Assembly: GCA_965222795.1 (NCBI GenBank)
Contig: OZ244972.1
Span: forward strand, 3,008,222-3,072,221
Source: Rhodospirillales bacterium
GTDB lineage: Bacteria; Pseudomonadota; Alphaproteobacteria; Kiloniellales; CBDCUY01
Length of the DNA stretch: 64,000 bases
Direction: 5' to 3'
Positions 2,582 through 49,132 of the stretch are shown piece by piece (the stretch's first letter is position 1; the number at the start of each line of letters is the position of its first letter). Below the pieces are notes generated by a model. That model searched no databases. It worked only from the letters and a program-made list of their open reading frames with translations, and was not told the DNA's origin. The translations under genes and the position numbers were made by a program.

Positions 2582-2598
2582 CCAGATTGGCCGCGCCT

Positions 2599-8094: not shown

Positions 8095-8321
8095 TTCATA
8101 AGGCTTTCCTTCGCTCAAGTTCGAGATTTGCCGGATAGTTTCTTGTTGGCGGCAGGCTTTGAGGCAGGAGGGTGGCGCCGAGATGATCTCGAAGATTGAG
8201 GCGTAGGGTGGCCTGAATTTCCCGCATCGCTAGCCAAATCCCCGTTATCGGTTATGATCGGGGCCAAGGGTTCACGATCAGCCGTGGTCATGATCTGGCG
8301 AGGCCCACGGCGGGGGCGGGG

Positions 8322-10190: not shown

Positions 10191-10214
10191 CCGCGTGGTG
10201 CCATCCCCGCAAAT

Positions 10215-10330
10215 GTCATCGCGAGACCCGGCCGGCCGGGGCGCGGCGATCCATTGTGACTCGCCGGTGGCGCCGGATTCTGCGGATAGGGGCTTATGGA
10301 TTGCCACAGCCCTTCGGGCTTCGCAATGAC
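10215..10330. repeat. REP/MITE-like imperfect inverted repeat in a convergent intergenic region
   Basis: The left arm gtcatcgcgag...gcgatccat (10215-10254) mirrors the right arm atggattgc...cttcgcaatgac (10296-10330). It resembles the widespread 'gtcattgcgag...gcaatccat' intergenic element family. Confidence 0.4.
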
Positions 10331-10419
10331 GAAGCTGGGGGGACGAGGGTCGCCCTTTGGCCTTGCCGTCTGACCCTGCCGCGATGCGGCCTTTACCGGC
10401 CGGTAGCCGCCCGCTACCC

Positions 10420-11289
10420 CTAACCCCCCACCCCCGCCGTCGGGCGGAAGAGGACCTCGCCGCCGAGCCGGAACTGGCCGATGGCGGCCTGGCCCTCGGG
10501 CCCGGTCAGCCAGTCGATGAAGGCTTGGCCCTCGGCCGCCTTGACATGCGGGTGGCGCGCGGGGTTGACCAGGATGACGCCATAGGGGTTGAAGAGCCGC
10601 GGGTCGCCCTCGGCCAACACCTGCAAGCCCCGGCGGTTCTTGAAGGCGAGCCAGCTGCCCCGGTCGGCCAGCGTATAGGCGCCCATGGCGGCCGCCGCGT
10701 TGAGGGTCGCCCCCATACCCTGGCCCAGCGAGCGGTACCAGGGGCCGCCGGTTTCCCCCCGTTCTCCCGCCTCCCGTTCTCCCGCCTCCGGGTTCAGGCC
10801 GATCGCCGCCCAAAGCCCCATCTCCTTCTTGTGGGTGCCGCTATCGTCGCCGCGCGACGCGAAGGGGGCCTCAGCCGCCGCGATCTTGGCCAAGGCCGCA
10901 GCCGCATCCGCCATAGCCGTGATCCCGGCCGGGTCCGCCGCCGGGCCGACGATCACGAAGTCGTTGGCCATGACCTCCTGGCGCTCGACCCCGTGGCCGG
11001 CGGCGACGAAACGCGCCTCGGAGGCTGGGTGGTGGACCAGCAGCACGTCGGCATCGCCACGCTCGGCCAGGCGCAGGGCTTGGCCGGTGCCGACCGCCAC
11101 CACCCGCACCTGGATGCCGCTTTGGGCCTCGAAGATCGGCAACAGATGGGCGAAGAGGCCCGAGTTCTCGGTCGAGGTGGTGGAGGCCAGGGTGATGAAG
11201 CGCTCGCCGGCCCTCGTTGGACTTAAGGTCAGAGCCAGCAGGGCCAAGACCAACAAGGAAACAACCAGCAAGAAGCGTCGCGCTACCAA
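10420..11289 (-). CDS. tupA: tungstate ABC transporter substrate-binding protein (TupA-type)
   Basis: Signal-anchor RRFLLVVSLLVLALLAL, then ..LASTTSTENSGL.. and ..RGDDSGTHKKE.., which match TupA anion-binding motifs. The TTG start at 11289 overlaps the tupC stop. The 548-aa track ORF is a read-through artefact. Confidence 0.75.
   Translation of the reverse strand: MVARRFLLVVSLLVLALLALTLSPTRAGERFITLASTTSTENSGLFAHLLPIFEAQSGIQVRVVAVGTGQALRLAERGDADVLLVHHPASEARFVAAGHGVERQEVMANDFVIVGPAADPAGITAMADAAAALAKIAAAEAPFASRGDDSGTHKKEMGLWAAIGLNPEAGEREAGERGETGGPWYRSLGQGMGATLNAAAAMGAYTLADRGSWLAFKNRRGLQVLAEGDPRLFNPYGVILVNPARHPHVKAAEGQAFIDWLTGPEGQAAIGQFRLGGEVLFRPTAGVGG
10758..10787 (-). repeat. perfect 15-bp tandem duplication, in frame in tupA (..EAGEREAGER..)
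   Basis: cccgttctcccgcct occurs twice, directly adjacent. Confidence 0.95.
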
Positions 11290-12020
11290 TGCAGTTCTCC
11301 TTTCAGGAAGGCGCGGGCCGCCTCGCTCTTGGGCCCGGCGAAAAAGGCGGCGGCCGGGCGCTGCTCGACCAGGCGGCCGCGGTGCAAAAACAGGATCTCG
11401 CCGGCCAGGCGCCGGGCTTGGCCGAGGTCGTGGGTGGTCATGACGATCTTGCTGTCGGCCCGGTTGAGGGCGCCGATGATGCTTTCGACGGCGGCGGTGG
11501 CAGCCGGGTCCAGGCTGGCGGTGGGCTCGTCGAGGAAGATCACCTCGGGCCTCAGCGCCCAGGCACGAGCCAAGGCCAGGCGCTGCTGCTCGCCGGTCGA
11601 GAGCACCCGCGCCGGCCGCTCCGCCAGGCTCTCGAGGCCGGTGTCGCGCAAGACCTGCCGACGGCGCTCCTGTCGTTCCTGGCGGGCCAAGCCGGCGGCC
11701 TTGAGGGCGTAGTCGATATTGGCGGCAGCCGAGCGGCGCAGCATCACCGGCCGCTGGAAGACCATGGCCTGTCGCGAGCGGACTTGTCCTGGGCGGACTT
11801 GATTTTGCCGGGCGTCCGCCTGCCAGGTGATGCGGCCGCTCGTCGGCGCGATCAGGCCGTGGGCCAGGCGCAGGGTGAGGCTCTTGCCGGCGCCGTTGGG
11901 GCCGAGGATGATGCTGATCGGCCCGGCGGCGAGGGTGAAATCCAGATCGGCGATCAGCCGCTCGCCGGCAAGGGCGTAACTCACCTGCTCGAAACGGCCG
12001 GGCAGGATGGAGGCGCTCAT
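11283..12020 (-). CDS. tupC: ABC transporter ATP-binding protein (TupC-type)
   Basis: ATG at 12020 overlaps the tupB stop (ATGA). Walker A GPNGAGKS, signature LSTGEQQRL and Walker B IFLDEP are present. Confidence 0.8.
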   Translation of the reverse strand: MSASILPGRFEQVSYALAGERLIADLDFTLAAGPISIILGPNGAGKSLTLRLAHGLIAPTSGRITWQADARQNQVRPGQVRSRQAMVFQRPVMLRRSAAANIDYALKAAGLARQERQERRRQVLRDTGLESLAERPARVLSTGEQQRLALARAWALRPEVIFLDEPTASLDPAATAAVESIIGALNRADSKIVMTTHDLGQARRLAGEILFLHRGRLVEQRPAAAFFAGPKSEAARAFLKGELHW

Positions 12021-12721
12021 CGCCCCAAGCCCTCGGCCAGCTCGCCCAGCAGGAAGGCCGAGGCATTCACGGTCACCGCCAGCAGCAGTAGGATGAGGCC
12101 GAGCCCGAGCGCTAGGGCCAGCTCGCCGCGTGCCGTCTCCAGGGCGATCGCCGTGGTCATGACCCGGGTGACGTGGTCGATATTGCCGCCGACGATCATC
12201 ACCGCCCCCACCTCGGCGCTGGCCCGGCCGAAGCCGGCGAGCACCGCGGTCAGCAGGCTGAAGCGCCCGTCCCACAGCAGGGTCGGCAAGGCGCGGCCCG
12301 GTCCGGCACCGAGCGAGCGCAGCTGCTCCTCGTACTCGACCCAGAGGTCGGCCACCACCTGCCGGGCGAGCGCGGCGATGATCGGGGTGATCAGGATCAC
12401 CTGGGCGATGATCATGGCAGTGGGCGTGAAAAGCAGGCCCAATACCCCGAACGGCCCGGCCCGAGACAGCATCAGATAGACCATCAGGCCGACCACTACC
12501 GGCGGCAGACCCATCAGCGCGTTAAGCAGCACGATCAGCAGGCGGCGCCCAGGAAAGCGGAAGAGCGCCACCGCCGCGCCCAACGGCAGACCAATTGTGG
12601 CCGCCACGGCAACCGCGCTGAGGCTGACGCGCAGGCTCAGGCCGACGATCTCGACCAAATCCCGGTCGGCGCCCAGGATCATGGCGACGGCGGCCGAAAA
12701 GGCGGCGGCGATCTCCTCCAT
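12017..12721 (-). CDS. tupB: ABC transporter permease (TupB-type)
   Basis: 234 aa, 5-6 TM segments, binding-protein-dependent permease (EAA-loop type), translationally coupled to tupC. Confidence 0.75.
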   Translation of the reverse strand: MEEIAAAFSAAVAMILGADRDLVEIVGLSLRVSLSAVAVAATIGLPLGAAVALFRFPGRRLLIVLLNALMGLPPVVVGLMVYLMLSRAGPFGVLGLLFTPTAMIIAQVILITPIIAALARQVVADLWVEYEEQLRSLGAGPGRALPTLLWDGRFSLLTAVLAGFGRASAEVGAVMIVGGNIDHVTRVMTTAIALETARGELALALGLGLILLLLAVTVNASAFLLGELAEGLGR

Positions 12722-12752
12722 CTTTGATGTACACGTCCTTCAACAATCGACC

Positions 12753-12781: not shown

Positions 12782-12928
12782 TTCGAATTGAGCCAAGATT
12801 TCTGAAAATTTCGTCAGGAATTGGCCATCGAGGGCGTCAGGGCACGCTGCCAATTTGCTGATGGCTTGCTGTCGGCTAGACGAGACGGCATAGTCACCCG
12901 GTCAGTCCCAATAGGCGAAGGAGGTGTC

Positions 12929-13906
12929 ATGACGGAACGGCCGGCTGCCGCGACCACAAGCCGCGAAATCCCGGCGCATGGTGGCTCGCCGCGCGCCGCC
13001 TCGCCGCGTGCCGATGCCGCGAGCCTCGACGAGTTCGAGCTGCGTCCGGACCCGGCCGACCCAAGCCTGACCGAGCGGGTCAGCGGGCTCGACCAGGAAG
13101 GGCGTCGGATTGAAACTGCGGTGGTGGTCGAGCGGCCGCTCACCCTGTACCTCAATCGCCAGGAAATCGTCACTATGATGACCATCGGCGACTATCCCGA
13201 TCTGCTGGCGCTGGGCTATCTGCTGAACCAGAACATGCTCAGCGCCGACGACGTGATCGAGGCCGTCGACTACGACGCGGAACTGGAGACCGTCGTTGTG
13301 CGCACGGCGCGCGAGACCGACTATGAGGAAAAGCTGCAGAAGAAGGTGCGCACCTCGGGCTGCGCCCAGGGGACGGTCTTCGGCGACTTGATGGAGCAAA
13401 TCGAGAGCGTCATGCTGCCAGCCGGGGCGATGCTCAAAACCTCCTGGCTCTATACGCTCAGCCGCAAGATCAACCAGGCGCCGAGCCTCTACCTGGAGGC
13501 TGGGGCGATTCACGGCTGCGTCCTCTGCCAGGCCGACCGGCCGCTGGTCTATATGGAGGATGTGGGTCGGCACAATGCGGTCGATAAGATTGCCGGCTAT
13601 ATGTTTCGCCACGAGATTGAGCCGGCCGACAAGATCTTCTACACCACCGGGCGGCTGACCTCCGAGATGGTGATCAAGACCGTGCAAATGGGCATCCCGA
13701 TTCTGGTCTCGCGCTCAGGCTTCACCGCCTGGGGGGTGGAACTGGCCCGGCAGGCCAATCTCACCCTCATCGGCCGCGCCAAGGGCAAGCGCTTCGTGGC
13801 GCTGGCGGGTGAGGATCGGATCCTCTTCGATAGCGATCCCCGGCAGGCCAGCGAGGAAGAGGCCCGCCACCAGCGCAAGGGCGCCCGCGCCGAGCCATTT
13901 TCCTAA
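12929..13906 (+). CDS. fdhD: formate dehydrogenase accessory sulfurtransferase FdhD
   Basis: ATG 12929 lies 5 nt after AAGGAGG. Family motifs ..EDVGRHNAVDK.. and ..LVSRSG.T.. are present, with an Ala/Pro/Arg-rich N-terminal extension. Confidence 0.85.
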   Translation: MTERPAAATTSREIPAHGGSPRAASPRADAASLDEFELRPDPADPSLTERVSGLDQEGRRIETAVVVERPLTLYLNRQEIVTMMTIGDYPDLLALGYLLNQNMLSADDVIEAVDYDAELETVVVRTARETDYEEKLQKKVRTSGCAQGTVFGDLMEQIESVMLPAGAMLKTSWLYTLSRKINQAPSLYLEAGAIHGCVLCQADRPLVYMEDVGRHNAVDKIAGYMFRHEIEPADKIFYTTGRLTSEMVIKTVQMGIPILVSRSGFTAWGVELARQANLTLIGRAKGKRFVALAGEDRILFDSDPRQASEEEARHQRKGARAEPFS

Positions 13907-13910
13907 GCCT

Positions 13911-14579
13911 ATGGGAGAAGGGGCCAGCCAAGGAAACCAACGAGTCGCAGGCTTGGTGCTCGCCGGCGGCCGGGCAAGGCGCATGGGCGGCGGTGACAAG
14001 GCGCTCGTGCCGCTTGCCGGGCGTCCAATACTGGCCCATGTGGTGGCGCGCGCCCGGCCCCAGGTCTCAACCCTGGTGCTCAATGCCAATGGCGCCGCCG
14101 AGCGCTTTGCCGCCTACGACCTGCCAGTGGTTGAAGATGTAGTGCCAGACTTTGCCGGGCCGCTGGCGGGCATTCTCACCGGGCTCACCTGGGCCGAGCG
14201 TCATGCCCCTGGCTGCTGCTGGCTGGCCAGTTTTGCCTGCGATGCGCCCTTCTTGCCCCGAGACCTAGTGGCCCGGCTACTCGCCGTTATCGAGCGGGAA
14301 GGCGCCGAGCTTGCTTGTGCCGCCTCGTTCGGCCGTCACCACCCGGTCTTTGGTCTGTGGCCGCTGGCCTTGCGGCCGGCGCTGGAGCGGGCGGTGGTCG
14401 AGGAGGGCCTGCGCAAGGTCGATGCCTTTACCGATCGCTACCCTTTGGCGGCCGTTGAATTTACCCCGATCGACACCAACACGGGTCCGCTTGATCCTTT
14501 CTTCAATGCCAATCGGCCGGAAGACCTGCAACAGGCGGAGCGCTGGCTAGCGGCCCTGCCTGCGGAGCGGGGCGCCTAG
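13911..14579 (+). CDS. mobA: molybdenum cofactor guanylyltransferase MobA
   Basis: ATG 13911 lies 4 nt after the fdhD stop. N-terminus ..GLVLAGGRARRMGGGDKALVPLAGRPIL.. is typical of MobA. Confidence 0.85.
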   Translation: MGEGASQGNQRVAGLVLAGGRARRMGGGDKALVPLAGRPILAHVVARARPQVSTLVLNANGAAERFAAYDLPVVEDVVPDFAGPLAGILTGLTWAERHAPGCCWLASFACDAPFLPRDLVARLLAVIEREGAELACAASFGRHHPVFGLWPLALRPALERAVVEEGLRKVDAFTDRYPLAAVEFTPIDTNTGPLDPFFNANRPEDLQQAERWLAALPAERGA

Positions 14580-20194: not shown

Positions 20195-20208
20195 GGAGGC
20201 TCTAAGTC

Positions 20209-20805: not shown

Positions 20806-21075
20806 TTGATCTTCCCAGCGCTGGCCGCTGATAGAATTTTGGGGGCGGCATGAGGCGTGCCGCCCCCGGTTCTATTCGGGCTCTCGACGACGTCGCAGAA
20901 TCGCTGTTGCTGGCGAGTATAGACTGGGCCTGGCGGCGTTTCTGGCGAACAGGGCCGGGTCGGTCCGACGCGCGGGATTGGCAGACAAGATCACTGAGGG
21001 TCAGGTCCCGTTCGGAAGATTTGTCAAAGATTAACCTGCCGGTGAGTAGCCTTTCCCTGAAGGACGTGTAAGAGA

Positions 21076-22242: not shown

Positions 22243-22341
22243 CCCATTGGCCCTCTCAGATCCGGCTTTGGTCCTGGGCTGCTAAGGGACCGACGCCCTC
22301 GGCCTGGGTGGCGATCCGACACTTGGGGCAAGTTGCCCGAC

Positions 22342-23718
22342 ATGAGCCCTGCAAGATCACATAGCTGCCTTCTCGCCCTTGCGCGGTTCCGCGGTTCCTT
22401 AGTGGGAGTCATCGCCACACTGCTTATGATCGGCATCGTGGCTTTGCCGCCCGAAAGCCGCGGCGAGCTCTTGGGCCACGGCGGCTTTGTAAAAGGGGTG
22501 GCGGTTTCCCCGGACGGCACCACCGCCTTAACGGCAAGCTTCGACTACACCGTGATCTACTGGGATCTGAGCGAGCAAAGGGCGATCCGGGTGTTGAATG
22601 AGCACGAAGGCGGCGTCAACGCGGTCGCCTTTCTGCCAAACGCCGGGAAAGCCATTTCGGCAAGCGATGACGGCAGCTTGATCCTCTGGGACTTGCAGAA
22701 CAGCGGTCTTCTGCATCGCTTTGACGGCCACAAGGGTAAGGCCGTCGCGGTTTCGGTCTCCCCTGACGGCCTTCTTGCGGTGTCGGCGGGTTGGGACAAG
22801 CGGCTTCGGCTCTGGGACCTGCAGGACCGAGTACCCCTCGGCGATATCCAAGCACTGCGGAGCCACGCCAATGCTGTTGCCTTTTCCCCTGACGGCACGC
22901 AAATACTGAGTGGCGGGCATGATGGCGCGCTTGATCTTTGGCAGGTTTCGGATCGCAGGCGCCTCGATCGTTTCGTCGGACATGATTTTGCGGTCACATC
23001 GCTTGACTTCACGCCGGACGGTCGACGGGCTATCTCGGCGAGCATCGATGAATCGCTGCGGTTCTGGGATCTTGCGCGCGGTGAAACGATTCTTACTTTA
23101 AGGGGTCATGAAGGACCGGTGCTGGCGGCCAGAGTGTCGCCGGATGGCCGCATTGCGGCATCGGCTGGCATCGATCGCGTGATACGTCTGTGGGACTTGG
23201 AGGACGGTGATCTGGTGGCTGAACTTCATGGTCATGGCGACACCGTTTGGTCATTGGCTTTTACCCCGGATGGCAAGAGGCTTTTGTCCGCAGGTTCCGA
23301 CGAAGTCGTGCGTCTGTGGGACCTGGAGAGCTTTCGCGAAGTGTCGGCCAGCTTGGCTTCGGCTGACGGCACTGATGTGACAGCCTTGCCGCCGGGTGAA
23401 GCGCGCGGACGGGACTTGTTCCGTAAATGCGCCGTTTGCCATACCACGCAGCCTGGCGGCGGCAATCGAGCCGGTCCGCCGCTCTTCGGCGTGTTTGGTC
23501 GCCGCGCAGGTTCCGTGAAGGGCTACAAGTATTCTAAAGCCTTGGCGGAGAGCGACCTGATATGGGATGACGCGACCATCGACGCACTCTTTTCGAAGGG
23601 GCCTGACGTCTTGACCCCCGGTTCGAAAATGCCATTGCAGCGCATGCCGAACGCCGATGATCGGGCAAAACTGATCGCCTATCTCAAACAGATAACCGCG
23701 CCGTCGAATGACGATTGA
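22342..23718 (+). CDS. WD40 beta-propeller fused to a C-terminal class I c-type cytochrome domain
   Basis: N-terminal hydrophobic segment LVGVIATLLMIGIVAL, about 7 WD repeats (..LWDL.. recurring), a C-terminal heme motif CAVCHT and a distal ..GSKMPLQRM... ATG 22342 (TTG 22333 alternative). Confidence 0.8.
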   Translation: MSPARSHSCLLALARFRGSLVGVIATLLMIGIVALPPESRGELLGHGGFVKGVAVSPDGTTALTASFDYTVIYWDLSEQRAIRVLNEHEGGVNAVAFLPNAGKAISASDDGSLILWDLQNSGLLHRFDGHKGKAVAVSVSPDGLLAVSAGWDKRLRLWDLQDRVPLGDIQALRSHANAVAFSPDGTQILSGGHDGALDLWQVSDRRRLDRFVGHDFAVTSLDFTPDGRRAISASIDESLRFWDLARGETILTLRGHEGPVLAARVSPDGRIAASAGIDRVIRLWDLEDGDLVAELHGHGDTVWSLAFTPDGKRLLSAGSDEVVRLWDLESFREVSASLASADGTDVTALPPGEARGRDLFRKCAVCHTTQPGGGNRAGPPLFGVFGRRAGSVKGYKYSKALAESDLIWDDATIDALFSKGPDVLTPGSKMPLQRMPNADDRAKLIAYLKQITAPSNDD

Positions 23719-26917: not shown

Positions 26918-28632
26918 CGGAGATCCTCCGGAAAGAACTTGAGGAGACACAAGAGCGGGTTTGGTGCCGCCTGGCCAAGGCCGCAGATCGAGGCATCGGC
27001 CATGACTTTGGCGAGATCGCCCAGGAGATCTTGGTCCCAATTGCCCTGTGACATCAGCTTGACCGCTTTTTCCGTCCCGTTGCGGCAAGGGGTGCATTGG
27101 CCGCAACTTTCATCCTCGAAGAACCGCATCAGGTTAAGGGCCACATCCTTCATGTTGTCCTTGTCGGACAGCACCACCACGGCGTGGCTGCCGACGAAGC
27201 AGCCCTGTTCCGCCAAGGGACCGCCGAAATCCAGCGGCAGGTCGGCCAGACTTGCCGGTAGAATGCCGCCCGAGGCACCGCCTGGGAGATAGCCTTTGAA
27301 AGCATGGCCGTCGGCCATTCCGCCGCAATGTTGCTCGATGAGCTCGCGGGCGGTGATGCCGGCAGGTGCCAGTTTGACCCCCGGCTGCTTCACCCGCCCG
27401 GAGACGGAATAGGATCGAAATCCCTTGTGGTCATCATCCTTGCCTTGGCCGGCAAACCACTCCGCACCCTTCTCGATGATATCCCGTACCCAGTAGACAG
27501 TCTCGACATTGTGCGCCAAGGTCGGCTGCTGGAAGAGGCCGCGTTCGGTGGGGAAGGGTGGCTTGTGTCGCGGCAGGCCCCGCTTGCCTTCGATCGATTC
27601 AAACATGGCCGACTCTTCGCCGCAAATGTAGGCGCCGGCACCTCGGCGCAGGTCGATTTTCATGCCGCCGGTTAGGCCCTCCGCGTCAATGCGGGCGATT
27701 TCGTCCTTCAGTATCTTAAGGACCGCCGGGTACTCATCGCGAATATAGACGTAAATCGTATCCACCTCGCAGGTCCAGCCGGCGATCAGCATCCCTTCCA
27801 AGAAGCGGTGCGGGTCGCTTTCCAAGTAGAAACGGTCCTTGAAGGTGCCGGGCTCACCCTCGTCGCCATTAATGGCGCAAAGCCGCGGGCCCGGTTGCTC
27901 GCGCACCAGTTTCCATTTCAAGCCGGCGGGAAATCCGGCGCCACCGAGGCCGCGCAGGCCAGAACTTTGCATCGCGGCCACGATATCGTTGCGGTCCCGC
28001 TTACCATCGAGGCAATCGCGCAGTGTGACGTAGCCGCCGCCCGCGACGTAGCTGTCGTAGCTGGTGTACGCGGGGATCTGCGGATGAGTTTCGCCGGCTA
28101 GGGCAGCGGCGGCGAGGCTTTCCACTGTAGCGCCATCCACGTGCCGATGACCGACCTCAGCCACCGGCGCCGTATCGCAGCGGCCCATGCAAGGCGCCCG
28201 CACGACCCGCACATTGCTGCCCACGGCGCTTTGCAGATTGGCCAGGATCTCTCCCGCCCCCATCAACCCGCAAGTCAGGCTGTCGCAGACCCGGATGGTC
28301 AAAGGTGGCGGTGGCTGTTCGTCTTCCAGAACGATGTCAAAATGGGCGTAGAAAGACGCCGTTTCGTAGACCTCGGCCATCGGCAAGCCCAGTTCTTCGG
28401 CAAGGGCTTGTAGGTGTCTCGCGCTCAAATGCCCGTGGCCATCCTGAATCAGGTGCAGATACTCGATGAGAAGATCGCGGCGGCGCGGTGTGTCTCCCAA
28501 GAGTGATTGGACTTCGCTCAAGGCATGAGGATCAAGCTTTCGGCCCTTCGGGAAGGGCAGGGCCTGCCTGCGGCCGGCACCAGGATGGATCTGGCGCTTT
28601 CCGGTGCCATTACTGTCGCTTGCCCTCTCCAT
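26914..28632 (-). CDS. fdsB: formate dehydrogenase beta subunit, fused NuoE-like (2Fe-2S) plus NuoF-like (FMN/NAD/4Fe-4S) domains
   Basis: 572 aa. The N-terminal part has ..CDSLTC..//..APCMGRCDTAP.. (NuoE type). The C-terminal part has ..GLRGLGGAGFP.. and ..ESCGQCTPCR.. (NuoF type). Confidence 0.85.
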   Translation of the reverse strand: MERASDSNGTGKRQIHPGAGRRQALPFPKGRKLDPHALSEVQSLLGDTPRRRDLLIEYLHLIQDGHGHLSARHLQALAEELGLPMAEVYETASFYAHFDIVLEDEQPPPPLTIRVCDSLTCGLMGAGEILANLQSAVGSNVRVVRAPCMGRCDTAPVAEVGHRHVDGATVESLAAAALAGETHPQIPAYTSYDSYVAGGGYVTLRDCLDGKRDRNDIVAAMQSSGLRGLGGAGFPAGLKWKLVREQPGPRLCAINGDEGEPGTFKDRFYLESDPHRFLEGMLIAGWTCEVDTIYVYIRDEYPAVLKILKDEIARIDAEGLTGGMKIDLRRGAGAYICGEESAMFESIEGKRGLPRHKPPFPTERGLFQQPTLAHNVETVYWVRDIIEKGAEWFAGQGKDDDHKGFRSYSVSGRVKQPGVKLAPAGITARELIEQHCGGMADGHAFKGYLPGGASGGILPASLADLPLDFGGPLAEQGCFVGSHAVVVLSDKDNMKDVALNLMRFFEDESCGQCTPCRNGTEKAVKLMSQGNWDQDLLGDLAKVMADASICGLGQAAPNPLLCLLKFFPEDLR

Positions 28633-41897: not shown

Positions 41898-42275
41898 TTG
41901 GCCGAGACAATGACGCTCATTGCCGGGCGCACCAGCAAGCAGGGAACAAGCCTCAATGCTGGCAAGCTTAAGGCAGAATACCGTGAGGTCACCTCGACAG
42001 GAGAAATGAATCTGGGGGATATGGAGCGCCTTGGCCTGAAAGATGGTGATTGTGTCAGGTTGCGGTCTGCAGCTGGTGAGGCGATCATTCGCTGCAAGGG
42101 GCGCAAGCCCGAGGATCTGCCGCCAGGGATGATCTTTATCGCCTATGGACCGCCCTCCAGCCAGCTGATGGGCGCCGACACGGCGCTGAGCGGCATGCCG
42201 TTGTCAAAAAATCTCGATGTCGAGGTTGAGCCCGTTGCCGGCAACGGCGTCGAAGTCGCGGATGATGGGGGATAG
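41898..42275 (+). CDS. formylmethanofuran dehydrogenase subunit D-like protein (molybdopterin-dinucleotide-binding beta-barrel domain)
   Basis: 125 aa. ..TLIAGRTSKQG...MNLGDMERLGLKDGDCVRLRSAAGEAIIRCK...PPGMIFIAYGP.. is typical of FwdD/FmdD and of domain IV of Mo/W-bisPGD enzymes. TTG start lies 8 nt after GAGGAG. Confidence 0.65.
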   Translation: MAETMTLIAGRTSKQGTSLNAGKLKAEYREVTSTGEMNLGDMERLGLKDGDCVRLRSAAGEAIIRCKGRKPEDLPPGMIFIAYGPPSSQLMGADTALSGMPLSKNLDVEVEPVAGNGVEVADDGG

Positions 42276-42277
42276 TT

Positions 42278-43594
42278 GTGAGCGAAAACATTCAAGTCAT
42301 TGAAAATGCCACTTGTACGTTTTGCGGCTGCGTTTGCGACGATCAAAAGCTCACCGTTGATGTTGATGAAAAGCGCATAATCAAGGTTCAAAACACCTGC
42401 GTCCTGGGCCGCGCGTGGTTTACAGAGCATGCCCATGAGGAGCGTCCGGCGGCACTAATCGATGGCCGTGAAGCCACTGTCGAAGAAGCGGTGGAGGAAG
42501 CGGCATCAATCCTGGCAGCGGCACGTTTTCCCATAACCTACGGACTTTCCGACACGACCTGTGAGGCGCAAAAGCAAGCCGTTGCCATAGCCGATCTGAT
42601 TGGTGGCTGTATCGACACGACCACGTCGGTTTGCCATGGCCCTTCGGGAATAGCCTTCGAAGGGGTCGGTGAGAGCACGGCAACCCTGGGGGAGATTAGG
42701 AACCGGGCGGACCTGGTGATCTTTTGGGGCGGTAACCCGGCCGAATCTCACCCCAGGCTTTTCGGTCGCTACGCCTTGACCCCCAAAGGCATGTTTACCC
42801 CTAATGGTCGGCGTGATCGTACCGCCGTTCTGGTTGACGTGCGCCGCACCAAGAGTGCCCCGGTTGCCGACATCTTCATTCAGGTAAAGCCGGGCAGCGA
42901 TTTTGAAGTCCTTTGGACCTTGCGGGCCCTTGTGAAGGGCGCCCGCGTGGACCCTTCGATCGAATCCCGCACCGGCGTTGCCCTGGCAACCCTGGAAGAC
43001 CTCGCCGAACGCATGAAATCCTGCCGCTACGGGGCCCTGTTGTTCGGCATGGGGCTCACCATGACCCGCGGGCGACACTTCAACTCAGGGGCCTTGCTCG
43101 CTCTTGCCAGTGACCTCAACGAGTACACCCACTTTGTCGCCAAGCCGGTCCGGGGCCACGGCAACGTGACCGGTGCCGACAATGTTGTCTCATGGCAGAC
43201 CGGCTATCCCTTCGGCGTCAACTTCTCGCGCGGCTACCCGCGGTTTAACCCCGGTGAATTTACCACCGTCGATTTGCTCGCCAAGCAGGATGCCGATGCG
43301 GCGCTGGTCATTGCCAGTGATCCGGCGTCGAACTTCCCCAAGAAGGCGGTAGAGCGACTGCAGCAGATTCCGGTGATCGTGTTGGATCCGAAGGAGACCG
43401 TCACCAGTCGTCTGGCCAGGGTCGCGTTCACCACAGCGCCTTATGGGATTTCGGTGCCGGGGACAGTTTACCGGATGGACGATGTGCCGATACCGCTGCG
43501 CCCAGCCTTCGATTCTCCCTATCCAAGTGACGAAGCGATCTTGACCGCCATAAAGGAACGCCTGAGCGCCCTTCGAGGTGCTGCTACCGCCTAA
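42278..43594 (+). CDS. fhcB: formylmethanofuran dehydrogenase subunit B-like protein (FwdB/FhcB)
   Basis: 438 aa; GTG start 2 nt after the D-like stop. N-terminal CTFCGCVC...C41 cysteine cluster. ..TTSVCHGPSG.. has a Cys119-His120 dyad (TGC 42632-42634). Confidence 0.8.
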   Translation: MSENIQVIENATCTFCGCVCDDQKLTVDVDEKRIIKVQNTCVLGRAWFTEHAHEERPAALIDGREATVEEAVEEAASILAAARFPITYGLSDTTCEAQKQAVAIADLIGGCIDTTTSVCHGPSGIAFEGVGESTATLGEIRNRADLVIFWGGNPAESHPRLFGRYALTPKGMFTPNGRRDRTAVLVDVRRTKSAPVADIFIQVKPGSDFEVLWTLRALVKGARVDPSIESRTGVALATLEDLAERMKSCRYGALLFGMGLTMTRGRHFNSGALLALASDLNEYTHFVAKPVRGHGNVTGADNVVSWQTGYPFGVNFSRGYPRFNPGEFTTVDLLAKQDADAALVIASDPASNFPKKAVERLQQIPVIVLDPKETVTSRLARVAFTTAPYGISVPGTVYRMDDVPIPLRPAFDSPYPSDEAILTAIKERLSALRGAATA

Positions 43595-43623
43595 TCACCC
43601 ACACTATTCTACAGTGCCTATCG

Positions 43624-45285
43624 ATGCCGGAATCCATCAAAATCGTTAATGCCCGCGTCTATGACCCCATCAACAATATTGATGGAGAGGTGCGTGATAT
43701 CTGCGTCAGCGATGGGAAAGTTGTTACAGCGGTCGGACCTGAGGCAAAAAGGATTGATGCACAAGGCATGGTGGTTATGCCGGGCGGGGTGGACATTCAT
43801 TGCCACATCGCCGGACCGAAGGTGAACCTGGCGCGCAAGCTGCAACCGGAAGACCATCGCCACGACGTGCATCCGCGCACGGCTCACACCCGCTCCGGTA
43901 CCGGGGGCACGGTACCATCCACATTCGCCACCGGGTACCGCTATGCGACCCTGGGCTACACGACGGCGATGGAGGCGGCGGTGCCGCCAATTGCCGCCCG
44001 GCACACCTTGGAGGAGCTCAACGACACGCCGGTGATCGACAAGGGCTTCTATGTCCTCCTAGGAAACAATGTCCTGCTCAATCAGCTCTTGGAGCAAGGG
44101 CGGATGGAGGAATTTCGCCAGGCGGTGGCTTGGTGGGTCAATGTGACCAAGTCCTACACCATAAAGCTCGTAAATCCGGCAGGCGATGAAGCCTGGAAAG
44201 GCAAGCGCAATCACACCATCGTCGGGCTTGACGAACAAGCCGGGCCCTTTGCCGTTACGCCGCGCAAAGTAGTCCAGGCCTTGGTCGAGGTGGCCCACGA
44301 TCTCGGCTTGCCCCATCCGGCCCATATCCATTGCAACAACCTTGGCCACAGCGGCAATTTTGAGACGACTTTGGGCACCATGGCGGCGGCAGAGGGGCGT
44401 CGCGCCCATATCACCCACATACAGTTTCACAGCTATGCCGGCAAGCCGGGCGGCAATCCGACCTCGGCTGCCGCGAAGATCGCCGAATATATCGATGCCA
44501 ACCCCAACATCAGCGCCGATGTGGGCCAGGTGATGTTCGGCAAGTCGATGATCATGACGGCTGATGCGCCGCTCGCCTATCTACTGCGCAACTACAGCCA
44601 CGATCGCCGCTGGGTCAACGCCGATACGGAGTGCGAGAGTGGCTGCGGCATCCTACCGTTCGCCTATCAGGAGCACATCTATACCCATGCCCTACAGTGG
44701 GGTATCGGGCTCGAGCTATTTCTCCTGGCCAAAGACCCCTGGCGCATGGTGCTTTCGACCGACCATCCGAACGGCGGTTCCTTCATGAGCTATCCTCGGC
44801 TGATACGATTGCTCATGGATAGTGCCTTTCGCCGCGAGGAAATCGCTCGGGTGAACCAAAGGGCGATAAAGAAGACCAGCCTGCTGGACGGACTCGACCG
44901 TGAATACTCGCTCTATGAAATCGCCATTGTCACGCGGGCGGGTCCGGCCCGCTTGCTCGGTCTGGCCAACAAAGGACATCTCGGCCCGGGCGCCGACGCC
45001 GACATCACCATTTACGACGAACAAGACGACAAAGAGGCCATGTTCTCTGTCCCGCGCTACGTGATCAAGGAAGGGCGCTTGATCATCGAAGATCATGAGT
45101 TTCGCAGTGACCATAACGGCAAGACCCTGCATGTCGCGCCAGACTATGATCCCGCCGTGGAAGATACCATCCGACCGTTCTTCGAAAGTTTTTATTCGAT
45201 GCAGTTCGCCAATTATCCGGTCACGGATCATTACCTGCCGCGCAAGGAAGTGATTAAGACGCGAAAGCAGGCGGAAGAGGAGTAA
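43624..45285 (+). CDS. fhcA: formylmethanofuran dehydrogenase subunit A-like amidohydrolase (FwdA/FhcA)
   Basis: 553 aa with the amidohydrolase metal motif ..GGVDIHCHIAGPK.. and the later ..HIHCNNLG... Confidence 0.85.
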   Translation: MPESIKIVNARVYDPINNIDGEVRDICVSDGKVVTAVGPEAKRIDAQGMVVMPGGVDIHCHIAGPKVNLARKLQPEDHRHDVHPRTAHTRSGTGGTVPSTFATGYRYATLGYTTAMEAAVPPIAARHTLEELNDTPVIDKGFYVLLGNNVLLNQLLEQGRMEEFRQAVAWWVNVTKSYTIKLVNPAGDEAWKGKRNHTIVGLDEQAGPFAVTPRKVVQALVEVAHDLGLPHPAHIHCNNLGHSGNFETTLGTMAAAEGRRAHITHIQFHSYAGKPGGNPTSAAAKIAEYIDANPNISADVGQVMFGKSMIMTADAPLAYLLRNYSHDRRWVNADTECESGCGILPFAYQEHIYTHALQWGIGLELFLLAKDPWRMVLSTDHPNGGSFMSYPRLIRLLMDSAFRREEIARVNQRAIKKTSLLDGLDREYSLYEIAIVTRAGPARLLGLANKGHLGPGADADITIYDEQDDKEAMFSVPRYVIKEGRLIIEDHEFRSDHNGKTLHVAPDYDPAVEDTIRPFFESFYSMQFANYPVTDHYLPRKEVIKTRKQAEEE

Positions 45286-45294
45286 GCAGGCAGC

Positions 45295-46197
45295 ATGCGA
45301 ATTGGCGCTACGGAAGTGGTTGATACCTTCGCTGAGGCCTTTGAGATGTGGGCCACGCGGGTGGTGATCACTGCTGCCACGCCGAAATGGGCCTTAGCGG
45401 CGGCTCGCTCCATGACCGGATTCGCGACCTCGGTTATCGGCTGCAAATGTGAAGCCGGTATCGAGCGTGAACTCGACACCAGCGACACGCCGGACGGCCG
45501 TCCGGGCATAAGCGTGCTCTTGTTTGCGATGGACAGCGAAGGTGTCGCCAAGCGTCTGGTTGAACGCATCGGTCAGTCGGTTATGACCTGTCCCACGACC
45601 GCCTGCTTCAATGGTTTAGAAGCGGACAAGACGGTCGTCGTTGGCGGCAAGCTTCGCTACTTCGGTGATGGCTATCAAATCAGTAAACGACTAGGAGGGC
45701 GACGGCTATGGCGCATCCCGGTCATGGACGGCGAGTTCTTGGTCGATGAACGCTTTGGCGTTCAAAAGGCGGTTGGTGGCGGCAACTTGCTGTTACTGGC
45801 CGGCGATCAGTCGGCCGCTCTTGAGGCGGCGGAAGCGGCCGTCCAGGCCATGCGCAGCGTGGTCGGCGTGATCCTGCCCTTTCCCGATGGCGTGGTTCGC
45901 TCTGGCTCCAAAGTTGGCTCAAGGTACAAGGCCCTTATCGCATCGACCAATGAGGCTTACTGTCCCAGTTTACGGGGGGTTGCACCGAAATCGGAAATTC
46001 CAGAGGATGTTGGGGCGGCTTTAGAGGTGGTCATCGACGGATTGGAACTTTCGGCTGTCAAGGAGGCCACGCGACGCGGCATAGAGGCGGCAGCCGGCGC
46101 CGGCGCGCGCAAGATTTCGGCCGGCAACTATGGTGGCAACCTTGGCAAATTCCGTATTGACCTGCACGCCCTTCTAGCCAGCGGCGCGGAAGCCTAG
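45295..46197 (+). CDS. fhcD: formylmethanofuran--tetrahydromethanopterin N-formyltransferase (Ftr/FhcD)
   Basis: 300 aa. N-terminus ..VVDTFAEAFEMWATRVVITA.. is characteristic of Ftr. Confidence 0.85.
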   Translation: MRIGATEVVDTFAEAFEMWATRVVITAATPKWALAAARSMTGFATSVIGCKCEAGIERELDTSDTPDGRPGISVLLFAMDSEGVAKRLVERIGQSVMTCPTTACFNGLEADKTVVVGGKLRYFGDGYQISKRLGGRRLWRIPVMDGEFLVDERFGVQKAVGGGNLLLLAGDQSAALEAAEAAVQAMRSVVGVILPFPDGVVRSGSKVGSRYKALIASTNEAYCPSLRGVAPKSEIPEDVGAALEVVIDGLELSAVKEATRRGIEAAAGAGARKISAGNYGGNLGKFRIDLHALLASGAEA

Positions 46198-46214
46198 CTG
46201 GGGGGTGAAGGAAG

Positions 46215-47039
46215 ATGCCCTTAACACTCACGATTAAGGCCGAGCTTGAAGTACCTCTCGAGGCCGAGGCCCTCGTTCCCGATACCTTCATCGGCCTGTC
46301 GCAACAGGAAATCTCGTCTGTCGGGGTGCTCTACGGCAATCGGCAAATGGTCCTGGGCGATTTTTTTGGTGTGAGCGGCAATGCGGACGACGAGCTTCGC
46401 CTCGAGGGTGACTTGAGCCGTGTCAAGATGGTTGGTGCCGACATGAAACGTGGTCGCCTAATCCTCGACGGTCCGGTGGGTGCCCATCTGGGTGTCGGCA
46501 TGTCCGGAGGAGAGATCCGGGTTAAAGGCTCTGCCGGCGACTGGGTGGGACCAGAAATGCTCGGCGGCCGCATTGTGATCGAAGGTGATGCGGGTCATGC
46601 CGTCGGCAGTGCCTATCGGGGCAGCCGCATCGGTATGCGTGGCGGCGAAATATTCGTCTTCGGACATGCAGGCAATGAGGTCGGCAGCGCGATGAAACGC
46701 GGCCTCATAGCCATTGGCGGAGATTGCGGTGATTTTACCGGCGTGAACATGCTGGGCGGGACGATTGTCGTCTTCGGCGAGATGGGATGGCGTCCAGGGG
46801 CTAGCCTGCGGCGCGGCACAATCGTGGCAATGCAAGCGAGCGAAGTGTTACCTACCTACAGCTATGCCTGTCGGTACAAACCAGGCTTTCTTCGCCTCTA
46901 CCTCCTCCACCTGCGGGCTCTTGGCCTGCCGGTTTCCGACCAGCAACTAGAGGGTAAGTACTTGCGATACAGTGGGGATTCGATTGAGCTGAACAGAGGC
47001 GAAATCCTGTTTTTGGATCGTTCTGTTGCGGCATCTTAG
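46215..47039 (+). CDS. fhcC: formylmethanofuran dehydrogenase subunit C-like protein (FwdC/FhcC, GXGXG beta-helix)
   Basis: 274 aa with repeated ..G.AG..VG..M.GG.I.V.G.. turns typical of the GXGXG domain. Confidence 0.85.
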   Translation: MPLTLTIKAELEVPLEAEALVPDTFIGLSQQEISSVGVLYGNRQMVLGDFFGVSGNADDELRLEGDLSRVKMVGADMKRGRLILDGPVGAHLGVGMSGGEIRVKGSAGDWVGPEMLGGRIVIEGDAGHAVGSAYRGSRIGMRGGEIFVFGHAGNEVGSAMKRGLIAIGGDCGDFTGVNMLGGTIVVFGEMGWRPGASLRRGTIVAMQASEVLPTYSYACRYKPGFLRLYLLHLRALGLPVSDQQLEGKYLRYSGDSIELNRGEILFLDRSVAAS

Positions 47040-47064
47040 AAAAGCGAATTGAAGGGAGCAGCCC

Positions 47065-48435
47065 TTGTCGGCCCTTGGCTCGGAAGGAATTCCCCTGAGA
47101 GTCGCCGTTGTCGGCGCCGGCCCGGCCGGCTTTTACGCGACTGAAGCCTTGCAGCGGGCTGAGGTCGAAGCCAAGGTTGATATCTTTGAAAGACTGGCCG
47201 CACCCTATGGCTTGGTGCGCAGCGGCGTTGCCCCCGATCACCCAAAACTCAAAAACGCCATTCGTGTCTATCACCAGATCGCACAGTCTGCTGACGTTGC
47301 CTTTCTCGGCAATGTCACTGTAGGACAAGATCTTTCTCTCGAGGAGATGAGCCAACATTACCACGCGGTGATCTTTTGCTACGGCGCCGAAAGCGATCGC
47401 CGCCTGGGTATCCCCGGCGAAGATTTGCCCGGTTCACACACGGCTACCGAATTTGTCGGTTGGTACAACGGGCATCCCGACTACCGCGATCATCAATTCG
47501 ACCTGTCTTGTGAGACTGCGGCGATCATTGGCCAAGGCAACGTTGCCTTAGACGTGGCACGGATCCTTTCCAAGACCGTCGATGAACTGAAGTTTACAGA
47601 TATCGCCCAACACGCGCTTGATAGCCTAGCGGAAAGCCGAGTTCGAGATATCCATATCATTGGCCGGCGGGGGCCGGCACAGGCCAAGTTCAGTCGGGCC
47701 GAGCTTGCGGAGTTTGCTCATCTTGAAGATTGCAGTGCTGTGGTCGATCCAGAGGATTTGCATCTAAACCCGGCCAGTGCGGCGGAACGCGATGACCGGG
47801 AAGGGCGTGGCATTGGAAAAAATCTTGAGCTCTTGCAGAGTTTCACCGAGCCGAAGCAGGGCAAGAAACGCCAGGTCTACTTTCGGTTTCTCTTGAGCCC
47901 CAAGGCCATCGAAGGGAAGGAGAGGGTAACCCGCCTACTCTTGGAAAAGAACCGGCTTGAGGGCAAAGCGTTTCAACAGCGGGCCATAGGGACGGGCGAG
48001 ACACTGCCTATCGATTGCGGACTGGTATTTCGCAGTATTGGCTATCTTGGTCAACCGGTTCCGGGCCTTCCGTTTGACCCCGGCAAGGGCATTGTTCCCA
48101 ACCGGCAAGGGCGGGTGGTCATGGACGATGAATTGCCGGCGGATGTCTACGTGGCTGGCTGGATCAAGCGCGGTCCAACGGGGAAAATTGGCACCAACCG
48201 TGCGGATGCGGTAGAGACCGTCGAGACCCTCCTGAGCCATTTGGCTGATCTGTCGCAGGAACCGAAAGAGGGTGCTGCCGGGTTAAGTTCGCTTCTGGAA
48301 GAGCGCGGCGTTCGCGTTGTCAGTTATCCAGATTGGTTGACCCTTGACGCGGTGGAGGTCGATCGTGGTAAGCCGCTAGGAAAGCCGCGGGAGAAACTTA
48401 CGCGGACTTCAGAGAAGCTGTCTTTGCTGGAGTGA
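47065..48435 (+). CDS. FprA/adrenodoxin-reductase-type NAD(P)H:ferredoxin oxidoreductase
   Basis: 456 aa. ..VAVVGAGPAGFYA.., ..FERLAAPYGLVRSGVAPDHPKLK.., and a second dinucleotide motif ..AAIIGQGNVALDVARIL... TTG start. Confidence 0.75.
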   Translation: MSALGSEGIPLRVAVVGAGPAGFYATEALQRAEVEAKVDIFERLAAPYGLVRSGVAPDHPKLKNAIRVYHQIAQSADVAFLGNVTVGQDLSLEEMSQHYHAVIFCYGAESDRRLGIPGEDLPGSHTATEFVGWYNGHPDYRDHQFDLSCETAAIIGQGNVALDVARILSKTVDELKFTDIAQHALDSLAESRVRDIHIIGRRGPAQAKFSRAELAEFAHLEDCSAVVDPEDLHLNPASAAERDDREGRGIGKNLELLQSFTEPKQGKKRQVYFRFLLSPKAIEGKERVTRLLLEKNRLEGKAFQQRAIGTGETLPIDCGLVFRSIGYLGQPVPGLPFDPGKGIVPNRQGRVVMDDELPADVYVAGWIKRGPTGKIGTNRADAVETVETLLSHLADLSQEPKEGAAGLSSLLEERGVRVVSYPDWLTLDAVEVDRGKPLGKPREKLTRTSEKLSLLE

Positions 48436-49132
48436 TCGGTCGTTCGGCTGCCTCCATGCGAGGGATGAGCCGGCGCACCTGGGCGAGCTTCTGCACATCC
48501 AAATCCTGAGTCCGTGCCGCGCCTCGACACAGGGCGCCGCGAAACCCCAGAAAATCAGGATCGAGCTTGAGCAGCGGAGCGATATCTTGACTGGCCAGCG
48601 AGCCGGCCAAGCCAGTCAATAGCCCAAACGCCCGACTCTGCCGAACAAAGCGGTCGAGGGTCTGGTGATCCATAAACTTTCTTAGACTTCCGCTGCCTTT
48701 GGCTGCTGTATCGAGCATGACTCCTAGGCAGCCGACCGCCGCGATGATGGGCAAAAGCGAGACATCCGCCTGTCGGTCAGCGAAAAGCACGACCACTATT
48801 CGCGTATCATTTTTGGCAAGTGGTTCTAAGCTCCCCAATACGGCATGGGCGCCGGCCGGATCGAAGATGCCGACTTTCACAATGTCGACCCCAGTGGCGG
48901 CGACATTGGTTACGGCCTCTGTCACCCGATCGACCTGGTTCGGCAGATCGCCGATCGTGGCGCTACAAGGACGGCGTCCCGCAATTCGCTCGACAGCGGC
49001 AGCGACGGTTGCTAGCGGCAGTGCGCCCAGGGCCCCGCTAGAGGGGTCTTTCAAATCGATAATGTCCACCCCGGCAGCAAGGGCAAGGCTCGCCTCCTCC
49101 GGAGAGGACACACTTGCCAAGAATCGTGTCAA
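48398..49132 (-). CDS. mfnB: (5-formylfuran-3-yl)methyl phosphate synthase (methanofuran biosynthesis, MfnB/DUF556)
   Basis: 244 aa. ..FLASVSSPEEASLALAAGVDIIDLKDPSSGALGALP.. matches the MfnB N-terminus. The 3' end overlaps the convergent FprA-like gene by 38 nt. Confidence 0.7.
   Translation of the reverse strand: MTRFLASVSSPEEASLALAAGVDIIDLKDPSSGALGALPLATVAAAVERIAGRRPCSATIGDLPNQVDRVTEAVTNVAATGVDIVKVGIFDPAGAHAVLGSLEPLAKNDTRIVVVLFADRQADVSLLPIIAAVGCLGVMLDTAAKGSGSLRKFMDHQTLDRFVRQSRAFGLLTGLAGSLASQDIAPLLKLDPDFLGFRGALCRGAARTQDLDVQKLAQVRRLIPRMEAAERPITPAKTASLKSA

Follow-up and report, generated by a model that had tools for sequence, protein, structure and literature searches.

A predicted W/Mo-pterin formylmethanofuran dehydrogenase with an embedded formyltransferase and a candidate NADPH-linked flavoprotein partner in an alphaproteobacterial locus

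Six genes lie on one strand at 41898–48435 of a 64,000-nt stretch of contig OZ244972.1 from a Rhodospirillales bacterium (the window, in whose positions all coordinates of this locus are given). They encode, in order, FwdD-like, FwdB-like and FwdA-like proteins, a formyltransferase (Ftr), a FwdC-like protein and a flavoprotein of the adrenodoxin-reductase/FprA type, with gaps of 2, 29, 9, 17 and 25 nt between them. A preliminary description of this DNA had proposed that they specify a redox-competent formylmethanofuran (formyl-MFR) dehydrogenase, rather than a purely hydrolytic formyltransferase/hydrolase complex (Fhc), with the flavoprotein as the electron link to NAD(P)H. Its gene list, gene lengths, gaps and convergent mfnB all match the coordinates of the open reading frames (ORFs) exactly. 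Here we follow up that proposal by comparing the subunits with structurally characterized Fwd and Fhc proteins and by surveying related loci.

The fwdD-like gene (41898..42275, + strand, as are the next five) begins at a TTG codon with the Shine-Dalgarno sequence GAGGAG 7 nt ahead of it, and the N-terminus of its 125-aa product (D) is common to its homologues. D matches PF01568 (5e-10) and, among structures in the PDB, FwdD chains at 2.7e-14 (9sfi_S) to 8.8e-11, including 5t5i_D at 5.6e-12; it is predicted to cap the metal-pterin site, as a ‘domain IV’ that forms a subunit of its own. The fwdB-like gene (42278..43594, GTG start, 438 aa) matches TIGR03129 over its full length (499 bits), and its product (B) is the predicted catalytic subunit, with a [4Fe-4S] cluster and a W/Mo-bis-pterin site. 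It is followed by a fwdA/fhcA-like amidohydrolase gene (43624..45285, 553 aa; TIGR03121, 705 bits, above the cut-off), whose product (A) has an HxH metal motif at H59/H61 and would contain the site of formyl-MFR hydrolysis or condensation, and then by ftr/fhcD (45295..46197, 300 aa; PF01913 and PF02741; TIGR03119, 427 bits; NF002554), encoding the formyl-MFR:tetrahydromethanopterin (H4MPT) formyltransferase. A fwdC/fhcC-like gene for a β-helix scaffold (C; 46215..47039, 274 aa; TIGR03122, 266 bits, above the cut-off) precedes the flavoprotein gene (47065..48435, TTG start, 456 aa), which encodes a predicted NADPH:ferredoxin oxidoreductase, hereafter Fpr. On the opposite strand lies mfnB (48398..49132, − strand, 244 aa; PF04476, 2e-66), for the 4-(hydroxymethyl)-2-furancarboxaldehyde-phosphate synthase of methanofuran furan-ring biosynthesis, a gene also found near the module in two of the related loci described below (L085 and L105). 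The fpr and mfnB frames converge with a 38-nt overlap (48398–48435), and no terminator-like structure was seen between them. A scan for promoters and terminators gave no signal above shuffled expectation, so the limits of the operon are drawn from intergenic distances alone.

B aligns end to end with the archaeal FwdB/FmdB structures (8rja_B, 9e-117; 9sfi_Q, 5e-108; 5t5i_B, 3e-106), and only from residue 58 onward with FhcB of Methylorubrum extorquens (6s6y_B, 9.5e-16). For comparison of individual residues, it was aligned with the sequences of three archaeal structures and with the Fhc-type B proteins of four cultured bacteria (Thiodictyon, Azospirillum, Azoarcus KH32C and Paraburkholderia), each encoded in an fhcBADC cluster without a D gene. 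Both the C13-x2-C16-x3-C20...C41 pattern and the Cys119-His120 dyad that had been read from the sequence are present. The four [4Fe-4S] cysteines (codons within 42314..42400, + strand) align with C9/C12/C16/C35 of FwdB (5t5i), while C119 and H120 (42632..42637, + strand; TTSVCHGPSG versus ASVCHGPS in FwdB), the predicted metal ligand and catalytic histidine, align with Cys118 and His119. The preliminary description had placed the W-ligating cysteine at about position 118, and this is correct. In addition, R292 (43151..43153, + strand; PVRGHGN versus PMRGHYN) is the equivalent of the catalytic Arg288. The four cultured Fhc-type proteins show Ala or Ser at the Cys position, Leu at the His position and Gly or Ala at the Arg position, and all four keep the Fe-S cysteines. 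We used the columns that are invariant in the archaeal sequences as a proxy for the pterin site: window B keeps 104 of 168 (62%) versus 29–39% for Fhc-type B, and compared with FwdB it carries no inserted loops. Overall identity follows the same division, at 41–46% to archaeal FwdB versus 24–31% to Fhc-type B. A degenerate pterin site had been named beforehand as an outcome that would speak against the proposal; by these measures the site does not look degenerate, and C119, H120 and R292 are retained. The possibility that position 119 is a selenocysteine was considered and excluded, as the codon is TGC or TGT, never TGA, in all 80 of the genome loci introduced next.

A scan of species-representative genomes recovered at least 589 stretches encoding a relative of B, of which the best 80, at 72–82% identity, were inspected. 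Almost all are from metagenome-assembled genomes (MAGs) and belong to Gemmatimonadales, Gammaproteobacteria (USCg_Taylor, Methylococcales, Thiotrichaceae), Kiloniellales and other Alphaproteobacteria, Betaproteobacteria and Ca. Methylophosphatis. Best hits, at 81–86%, to Kiloniellales, Rhodospirillales and other alphaproteobacterial MAGs mark the window's host as an alphaproteobacterium, as do its CtrA-type regulator and ChpT. As a control, the four Fhc-type B proteins were aligned and the alignment was used to scan metagenome contigs; 165 loci in all were then classed by whether the Cys-His-Arg triad is intact (83) or lost (82); the denominators 80, 69, 52, 24 and 77 used below are the loci that could be assessed for the feature in question. 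The motifs CTFCGC[VLA]C, VCHGP and P[VT]RGHGN are kept in all 80 of the inspected genome loci, and the triad is invariant in 83/83 relatives across Alpha-, Beta- and Gammaproteobacteria and Gemmatimonadota and lost in 82/82 Fhc-type B. Its presence coincides with that of other genes. A D gene, upstream of B, occurs in 77/80 triad-intact versus 1/69 triad-lost loci (Fisher p~1e-37), an Fpr gene in 39/52 versus 1/24 (Fisher p~4e-9) and a gene for an FdxA-type ferredoxin in 32/52 versus 1/24. The two genes for which a survey of fhc clusters had been advised, those for D and the FprA-like protein, both track the intact triad. Hydrolytic FhcB proteins that carry the dyad and are accompanied by a D gene, which would have counted heavily against a dehydrogenase, were not found: FhcB of M. 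extorquens has no Cys118, His119 or Arg288, and its complex no FwdD (PMC6926001), and the 4 cultured and 78 metagenomic Fhc-type loci are without the triad and effectively all without a D gene.

One element of the preliminary description did not survive this survey, namely the use of the Fe-S motif as a sign of the redox type. The four cysteines occur in 83/83 triad-intact B but also in 70/77 triad-lost B, and because most Fhc-type proteins keep them they are not diagnostic; judged across these alignments, it is the Cys-His-Arg triad that separates the Fwd type from the Fhc type. Most bacterial Fhc-type B proteins (those 70, from loci L081–L165) are in this respect unlike the truncated FhcB of M. 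extorquens, and many ‘scaffold’ FhcB proteins may still bind a cluster. Among relatives of the window module, B is the most conserved subunit, with a median identity to the window of 76%, compared with 69% for A, 67% for Ftr, 66% for D and 58% for both C and Fpr; this ranking is the opposite of that to be expected were B a mere scaffold. At one locus (L061:8400–10000), short ORFs that by eye resemble transposase fragments occupy the usual fwdD site, and the ferredoxin and Fpr genes are still found downstream. An insertion sequence may have pushed out fwdD in that MAG.

The flavoprotein itself is a full-length match to bovine adrenodoxin reductase (1cjc, 8e-110, residues 12–455) and to FprA of Mycobacterium tuberculosis (1lqt, 1.5e-107). 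It has two dinucleotide-binding motifs (VVGAGPAGFY and IIGQGNVALD) and four scattered cysteines, with no Fe-S domain. An orthologue adjoins the module in 53/83 intact-triad loci, located either after C or ahead of D. Where it lies downstream in the relatives, there is usually a gap of ~400 nt after C that holds a 101-aa ORF with 9–10 cysteines, identified as an FdxA-type ferredoxin (NF045490, 116 bits) of the class known to be 7Fe in Azotobacter-type proteins. FprA is known to work with 7Fe ferredoxins. The ferredoxin gene is directly ahead of Fpr in 42/53 cases, and the pair follows C in Proteobacteria and precedes D in Gemmatimonadota and Betaproteobacteria; nine Gemmatimonadales loci have Fpr without an adjacent ferredoxin. 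These assignments come from inspection of the gaps and from tblastn, which were used instead of an all-against-all clustering of flanking ORFs, in which the spurious shadow ORFs of high-GC sequence interfered.

A different arrangement is found in Methylococcales-type loci, which have no free D. There, the first ~120 residues of a 734-aa protein are 51% identical to window D (3e-36), and residues 137–734 make up an entire NADPH diflavin reductase of the CysJ type (TIGR01931, 693 bits, above the cut-off). Such D-CysJ fusions of ~720–745 aa make up ~80 protein clusters; the named ones are all from Methylococcales, Crenotrichaceae, Methylococcus sp. or Methylohalobius MAGs. All of the clusters are annotated ‘assimilatory sulfite reductase flavoprotein’, a label that probably misstates their role. 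We located fusion genes at L166:533-2737 (−), L168:5209-7422 (+), L169:10001-12202 (+) and L105:627-2843 (−). In L168 and L169 the gene is divergent from, and adjoins, a B-A-Ftr-C set with an intact-triad B, and in L166 it is ~7 kb away. In the CysJ-like proteins P0305 (Methylococcus geothermalis, 978 aa) and P0306–P0310 (from metagenomes and one Methylomagnum sp. record), the position of the D domain is taken by a different N-terminal extension, with a precomputed match in P0305 and P0307 to PF14522, presumably a multihaem-cytochrome-type domain; in this lineage the reductase fusions appear to be modular. A 521-aa protein without an NCBIfam or Pfam match is encoded right after fwdC in two Methylococcales-type loci (L166:14827–16392 and L167:6929–8491) and in none of the other loci searched.

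Three architectures (C-FdxA-FprA, FdxA-FprA-D and the D-CysJ fusion) would therefore tie the FwdB/D site to an NADPH flavoprotein, and they are the strongest support for the NAD(P)H link that had been proposed for the FprA-like enzyme. That proposal gains further from the difference in adjacency given above (39/52 versus 1/24), from the occurrence of Fpr at either end of the module and from its FdxA companion.

Coupling these observations, we consider it rather probable that the locus encodes a bacterial, Ftr-integrated formyl-MFR dehydrogenase with a W/Mo-pterin site, which operates in the oxidative direction and passes its electrons to NAD(P)+. The reading of the module as a redox-competent dehydrogenase passed every sequence test that was run. 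In the mechanism that we envisage, Ftr would hand the formyl group of formyl-H4MPT over to methanofuran or methylofuran, and the FwdA amidohydrolase would free formate into a channel inside the complex. At the W- or Mo-bis-pterin site of FwdB/FwdD, with Cys119 as ligand together with His120 and Arg292, formate would be oxidized to CO2, and the two electrons would exit through the [4Fe-4S] cluster of FwdB to a small ferredoxin (the 7Fe FdxA in most relatives, and in this host presumably one encoded outside the window). The FprA-type flavoprotein would then take the electrons from ferredoxin and reduce NAD(P)+. The net reaction would be formyl-H4MPT + NAD(P)+ + H2O -> CO2 + H4MPT + NAD(P)H, with free formate bypassed. 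The formyl-MFR/CO2 couple lies at roughly −500 mV and the NADP couple at roughly −320 mV, and the oxidative direction is favoured because of these potentials. The gammaproteobacterial loci, in which the neighbouring genes are fae, mtdB and mch of an oxidative H4MPT island, fit the same direction. What has been observed is the content and order of the genes, the conservation of the catalytic and cluster residues and the co-occurrence of the genes; binding of the cofactors, the direction, the ferredoxin/FprA route and the identity of the metal as W or Mo are predicted.

Several observations weigh against this reading. In the subunits, D scores only 75 bits against the NCBIfam FwdD model (NF042908), below its cut-off of 175, and 38% of the archaeal-invariant columns of B are changed. 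One of these is Arg36, beside the fourth cluster cysteine, which is Val42 in window B. The three archaeal FwdB proteins read CRIG or CRLG here, and the bacterial relatives inspected at this point have CVLGR or CILGR, in which the Arg is displaced by four residues (window 42398–42412, residues 41–45); this shift may be a compensating change on the path from the cluster to the pterin. Among the relatives, no cultured host of the intact-triad type was found, only MAGs, and the cultured replicons of Azospirillum, Paraburkholderia, Azoarcus and Thiodictyon all carry Fhc-type B. The remaining points concern the electron outlet. There is no ferredoxin gene in the 25 nt between C and Fpr in the window, and a tblastn search with FdxA over all 64 kb gave weak matches inside formate dehydrogenase Fe-S subunits only. 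The operon has no FwdF/FwdG polyferredoxin, and clustering of flanking ORFs from the 80 genome loci gave no conserved polyferredoxin-like neighbour. Fpr is absent within the flank in 30/83 intact-triad loci, which makes it frequent but not universal, and the nearest relatives of the window module (L001, L002, L015 and L085) are among those with no Fpr within the flank.

The missing ferredoxin and the loci without Fpr are the substance of the best-surviving alternative, in which FwdBD is redox-competent but FprA is not its partner here; electrons would instead pass to some other acceptor, for instance a general pool of ferredoxins, a cytochrome or a system linked to quinones, and the flavoprotein would serve, for example, Fe-S or cofactor biosynthesis. 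Enzymes of the adrenodoxin reductase/FprA type classically run from NADPH to ferredoxin, the reverse of what we propose, and this too is in its favour. We nonetheless regard it as unlikely, since Fpr adjoins more than half of the intact-triad loci, at either end of the module and in several phyla, and is essentially absent from Fhc-type loci. The independent D-CysJ fusion indicates the same partnership with an NADPH flavoprotein, and in the window itself the short gap between C and Fpr suggests co-transcription.

That the locus could encode an ordinary hydrolytic Fhc also had to be considered. According to this explanation, B and D would be scaffolds with ancestral leftover residues, and formate would be released and oxidized by the two formate dehydrogenases encoded elsewhere in the window, both of which are bona fide. 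The module does resemble FhcABCD of M. extorquens (6S6Y) in its gene order, B-A-Ftr(FhcD)-C or fhcBADC (PMC6926001), in its presumed link to C1 oxidation through H4MPT and in having a methanofuran gene nearby. Ftr finds its best PDB match in FhcD (6s6y_D, 318 bits, versus 284–300 for archaeal Ftr), and the alignment of C with FhcC (6s6y_C, over residues 4–265) runs from one end to the other. Papers on soil Gemmatimonadetes and Methylophaga likewise label such genes fhc, and the Methylophaga paper describes formate as released. The catalytic parts, however, differ. FhcB of M. extorquens has Ser62 in place of Cys118 and is without His119, Arg288 and the N-terminal Fe-S domain, there is no FwdD, three loops would clash with a pterin, and the complex releases formate (Hemmann et al. 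2019, PMC6926001). The window keeps the triad, the Fe-S domain and the D gene, the last of which is absent in 68/69 assessable Fhc-type loci and is thus retained only with an intact triad. Leftover residues would not be expected to remain invariant across phyla at 72–85% overall identity, nor would a scaffold be expected to be the most conserved subunit.

Tandem loci bear on the same question. Loci L124 (172-kb contig; 847–12612) and L151 (254-kb contig; 786–12619) each contain D-B-A-Ftr-C-Fdx-Fpr and, directly after it and in the same orientation, a full Fhc-type set B'-A'-Ftr'-C', and the same junction between Fwd-type and Fhc-type modules is seen in part in L119 and L122. The Fdx and Fpr exceptions among the triad-lost loci are explained by these tandem loci. 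The sole triad-lost case with D is L105, in which the D domain belongs to a D-CysJ fusion ~5 kb upstream of an Fhc-type module; no intact-triad B was found in the 17 kb examined there. At this locus (L105:2481–3876 and 8001–12596), the D-CysJ gene is next to mfnB, and the Fhc-type B has lost the triad as well as some of the Fe-S motif. The pairing of complete paralogous modules in single genomes argues, as far as gene content can, for distinct, non-redundant functions. With the distribution of the triad and D, it leaves us to consider a purely hydrolytic role for the window module very unlikely.

The reductive mode known from methanogens, in which NADPH would reduce ferredoxin through FprA and CO2 would be fixed to formyl-MFR and formyl-H4MPT for assimilation, agrees with the normal reduction of ferredoxins by FprA/adrenodoxin reductase with NADPH, with the reversibility of Fwd chemistry (PMC6926001, PMC11493965) and with the CO2- or CO-related role weighed for an actinobacterial operon by Merino et al. 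(PMC7325909), but it is highly improbable, as by textbook potentials NADPH (~−320 mV) is too weak for a couple at ~−500 mV without bifurcation or another energy input, for which no module lies nearby, the gammaproteobacterial neighbours form an oxidative H4MPT island, and the hosts belong to aerobic methylotroph and methanotroph lineages.

We therefore return to the oxidative, NAD(P)+-linked dehydrogenase, and to how it compares with known systems. The archaeal Fwd/Fmd complex (FwdABCDFG of M. wolfeii, 5T5I) shares with the window homologues of A, B, C and D, a separate small D and a B subunit that is 41% identical and has equivalents of the [4Fe-4S] cysteines, Cys118/His119 and Arg288. The window differs in having no FwdF, FwdG or FwdE, in the placement of Ftr inside the operon, in its aerobic-type alphaproteobacterial host and in its predicted partner, an FprA-type NADPH flavoprotein, with a direction that is presumably oxidative. 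The best structural match of window B (46% identity) is the Fwd of Ca. Ethanoperedens thermophilum (8RJA), which is F420-reducing, works in the CO2-forming direction and has its polyferredoxin swapped for a dedicated reductase module directed at a two-electron cofactor (PMC11493965). Its authors concluded that the acceptor, not the active site, sets the direction (Lemaire et al. 2024, PMC11493965). An Fwd with a reductase module is a precedent for our proposal; the archaeal complex differs in that its F420 reductase, FwdI, is wired via FwdG and its Ftr is not integrated, and in the window the place of the reductase would be taken by the adrenodoxin reductase/FprA flavoprotein. Compared with adrenodoxin reductase and FprA themselves, the window enzyme is distinguished by its location in a C1-oxidation operon and by the proposed transfer from ferredoxin to NADP+.

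The remaining subunits show mixed affinities. A is closer to archaeal FwdA (490–498 bits) than to FhcA (6s6y_A, 369 bits), Ftr sides with FhcD as noted above, and C aligns over residues 3–259 with 9sfi_R and over ~3–223, the β-helix, with other archaeal FwdC, with a score of 184 bits against FwdC in the PDB. In the Fhc complex, the C-terminal part of C docks the formyltransferase dimer, and methylofuran is bound as a prosthetic swinging arm. Given these affinities and a gene order that is fhcBADC with fwdD in front, the module appears to combine both types, with an Fhc-like organization, in which ftr is integrated, and intact Fwd redox hardware; we claim no direction of descent. That an entire archaeal fwd operon was recently imported was considered and rejected on the same grounds, as Ftr is embedded and nearest to FhcD, the end of C is FhcC-like and FwdF/G are absent.

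Bacterial FwdBD and the fwdDBA-ftr-fwdC operon are themselves already known (PMC10100899, PMC7325909). Merino et al. (2020) described the same gene order in uncultured Hakuba Actinobacteria, with the Fe-S domain and Cys118 kept, and noted that the enzyme ‘could be active’ (PMC7325909); those hosts differ in being anaerobes with the Wood-Ljungdahl pathway and no methanopterin biosynthesis genes (PMC7325909). Wells et al. (2023) counted 149 bacterial FwdB against 94 FhcB representatives and ascribed the bacterial FwdB to transfer from Archaea, but put forward no function (PMC10100899). Neither study proposed an electron partner or reported a Fwd/Fhc dichotomy, tandem loci or a D-CysJ fusion. In the literature that we searched, no link between Fwd and adrenodoxin reductase was found, and no account of FdxA-FprA or D-CysJ as partners, of the tandem loci or of the clean division into Fwd and Fhc types, although Adam et al. 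2019 (Nat Microbiol), who may treat bacterial FwdD, could have recognized some of this earlier.

Beyond this locus, the survey raises the wider suggestion, to which we give about even weight, that there is a widespread bacterial class of NAD(P)+-reducing W/Mo-pterin formyl-MFR dehydrogenases with a built-in formyltransferase and three flavoprotein architectures, distinct from the hydrolytic Fhc with which it may coexist. If so, the ‘Fhc’ step would be mis-assigned in many uncultured methylotrophs and methanotrophs (USC-gamma, Methylococcales and Crenotrichaceae MAGs, Gemmatimonadota), and Fhc would be a degenerate offshoot. Current accounts end the bacterial H4MPT pathway at a pterin-free Fhc, from which formate is passed to separate formate dehydrogenases. 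If the reading proposed here is right, many mostly uncultured bacteria (at least 589 related stretches) would make NAD(P)H at the formyl level and skip the formate branch point; the 80 inspected include lineages of atmospheric-methane oxidizers such as USC-gamma, Methylococcales and soil Gemmatimonadota. Models of carbon and redox flux and estimates of tungsten and molybdenum demand would change accordingly, as would the way in which ‘fhc’ reads from metagenomes and metatranscriptomes are interpreted, and the ~80 D-CysJ clusters labelled as sulfite reductase flavoproteins would need re-annotation. Hemmann et al. proposed three steps leading from Fwd to Fhc (PMC6926001), and the module would provide a living form for that trajectory, with ftr inside the operon and the dehydrogenase hardware still intact. 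An oxygen-exposed, NAD(P)-linked CO2/formyl-MFR catalyst would also be of possible biotechnological interest.

Elsewhere in the window are genes for cofactor supply, and FdhD, MobA and TupA count in favour of a W/Mo-pterin dehydrogenase in this respect. The fdhD sulfurtransferase gene and mobA (12821..14579, + strand; TIGR00129/NF001943; TIGR02665, 205 bits), for maturation of the bis-molybdopterin guanine dinucleotide cofactor, would be shared with the window's formate dehydrogenases. The tungstate transporter tupBCA had been claimed for this window, and its TupA part is borne out by a 548-aa ORF (10420..12066, − strand) that contains a TupA tungstate-binding protein (NF041772, 201 bits, residues 284–544). 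Since the match covers the last ~260 residues alone, the start of this ORF is probably over-called. The surrounding segment (10001–12727) has a GC content of ~70%, compared with ~59% window-wide, and long ORFs overlap there on both strands.

Both formate dehydrogenases mentioned in the preliminary description were confirmed, one a periplasmic FDH3-type enzyme (17324–22242) and the other an NAD-linked FdsA/NuoEF-type enzyme (24158–28632, − strand). Between mobA and the FDH3-type genes lie a DUF3305-type ORF and a gene for a TorD-like chaperone (14687–15250 and 16362–16967). In some bacteria the DUF3305 domain occurs as a fusion with MobA. The gene for the formate dehydrogenase gamma subunit is followed by a cytochrome c fusion ORF (22333–23718), and a CtrA-type regulator and ChpT are also encoded in the window.

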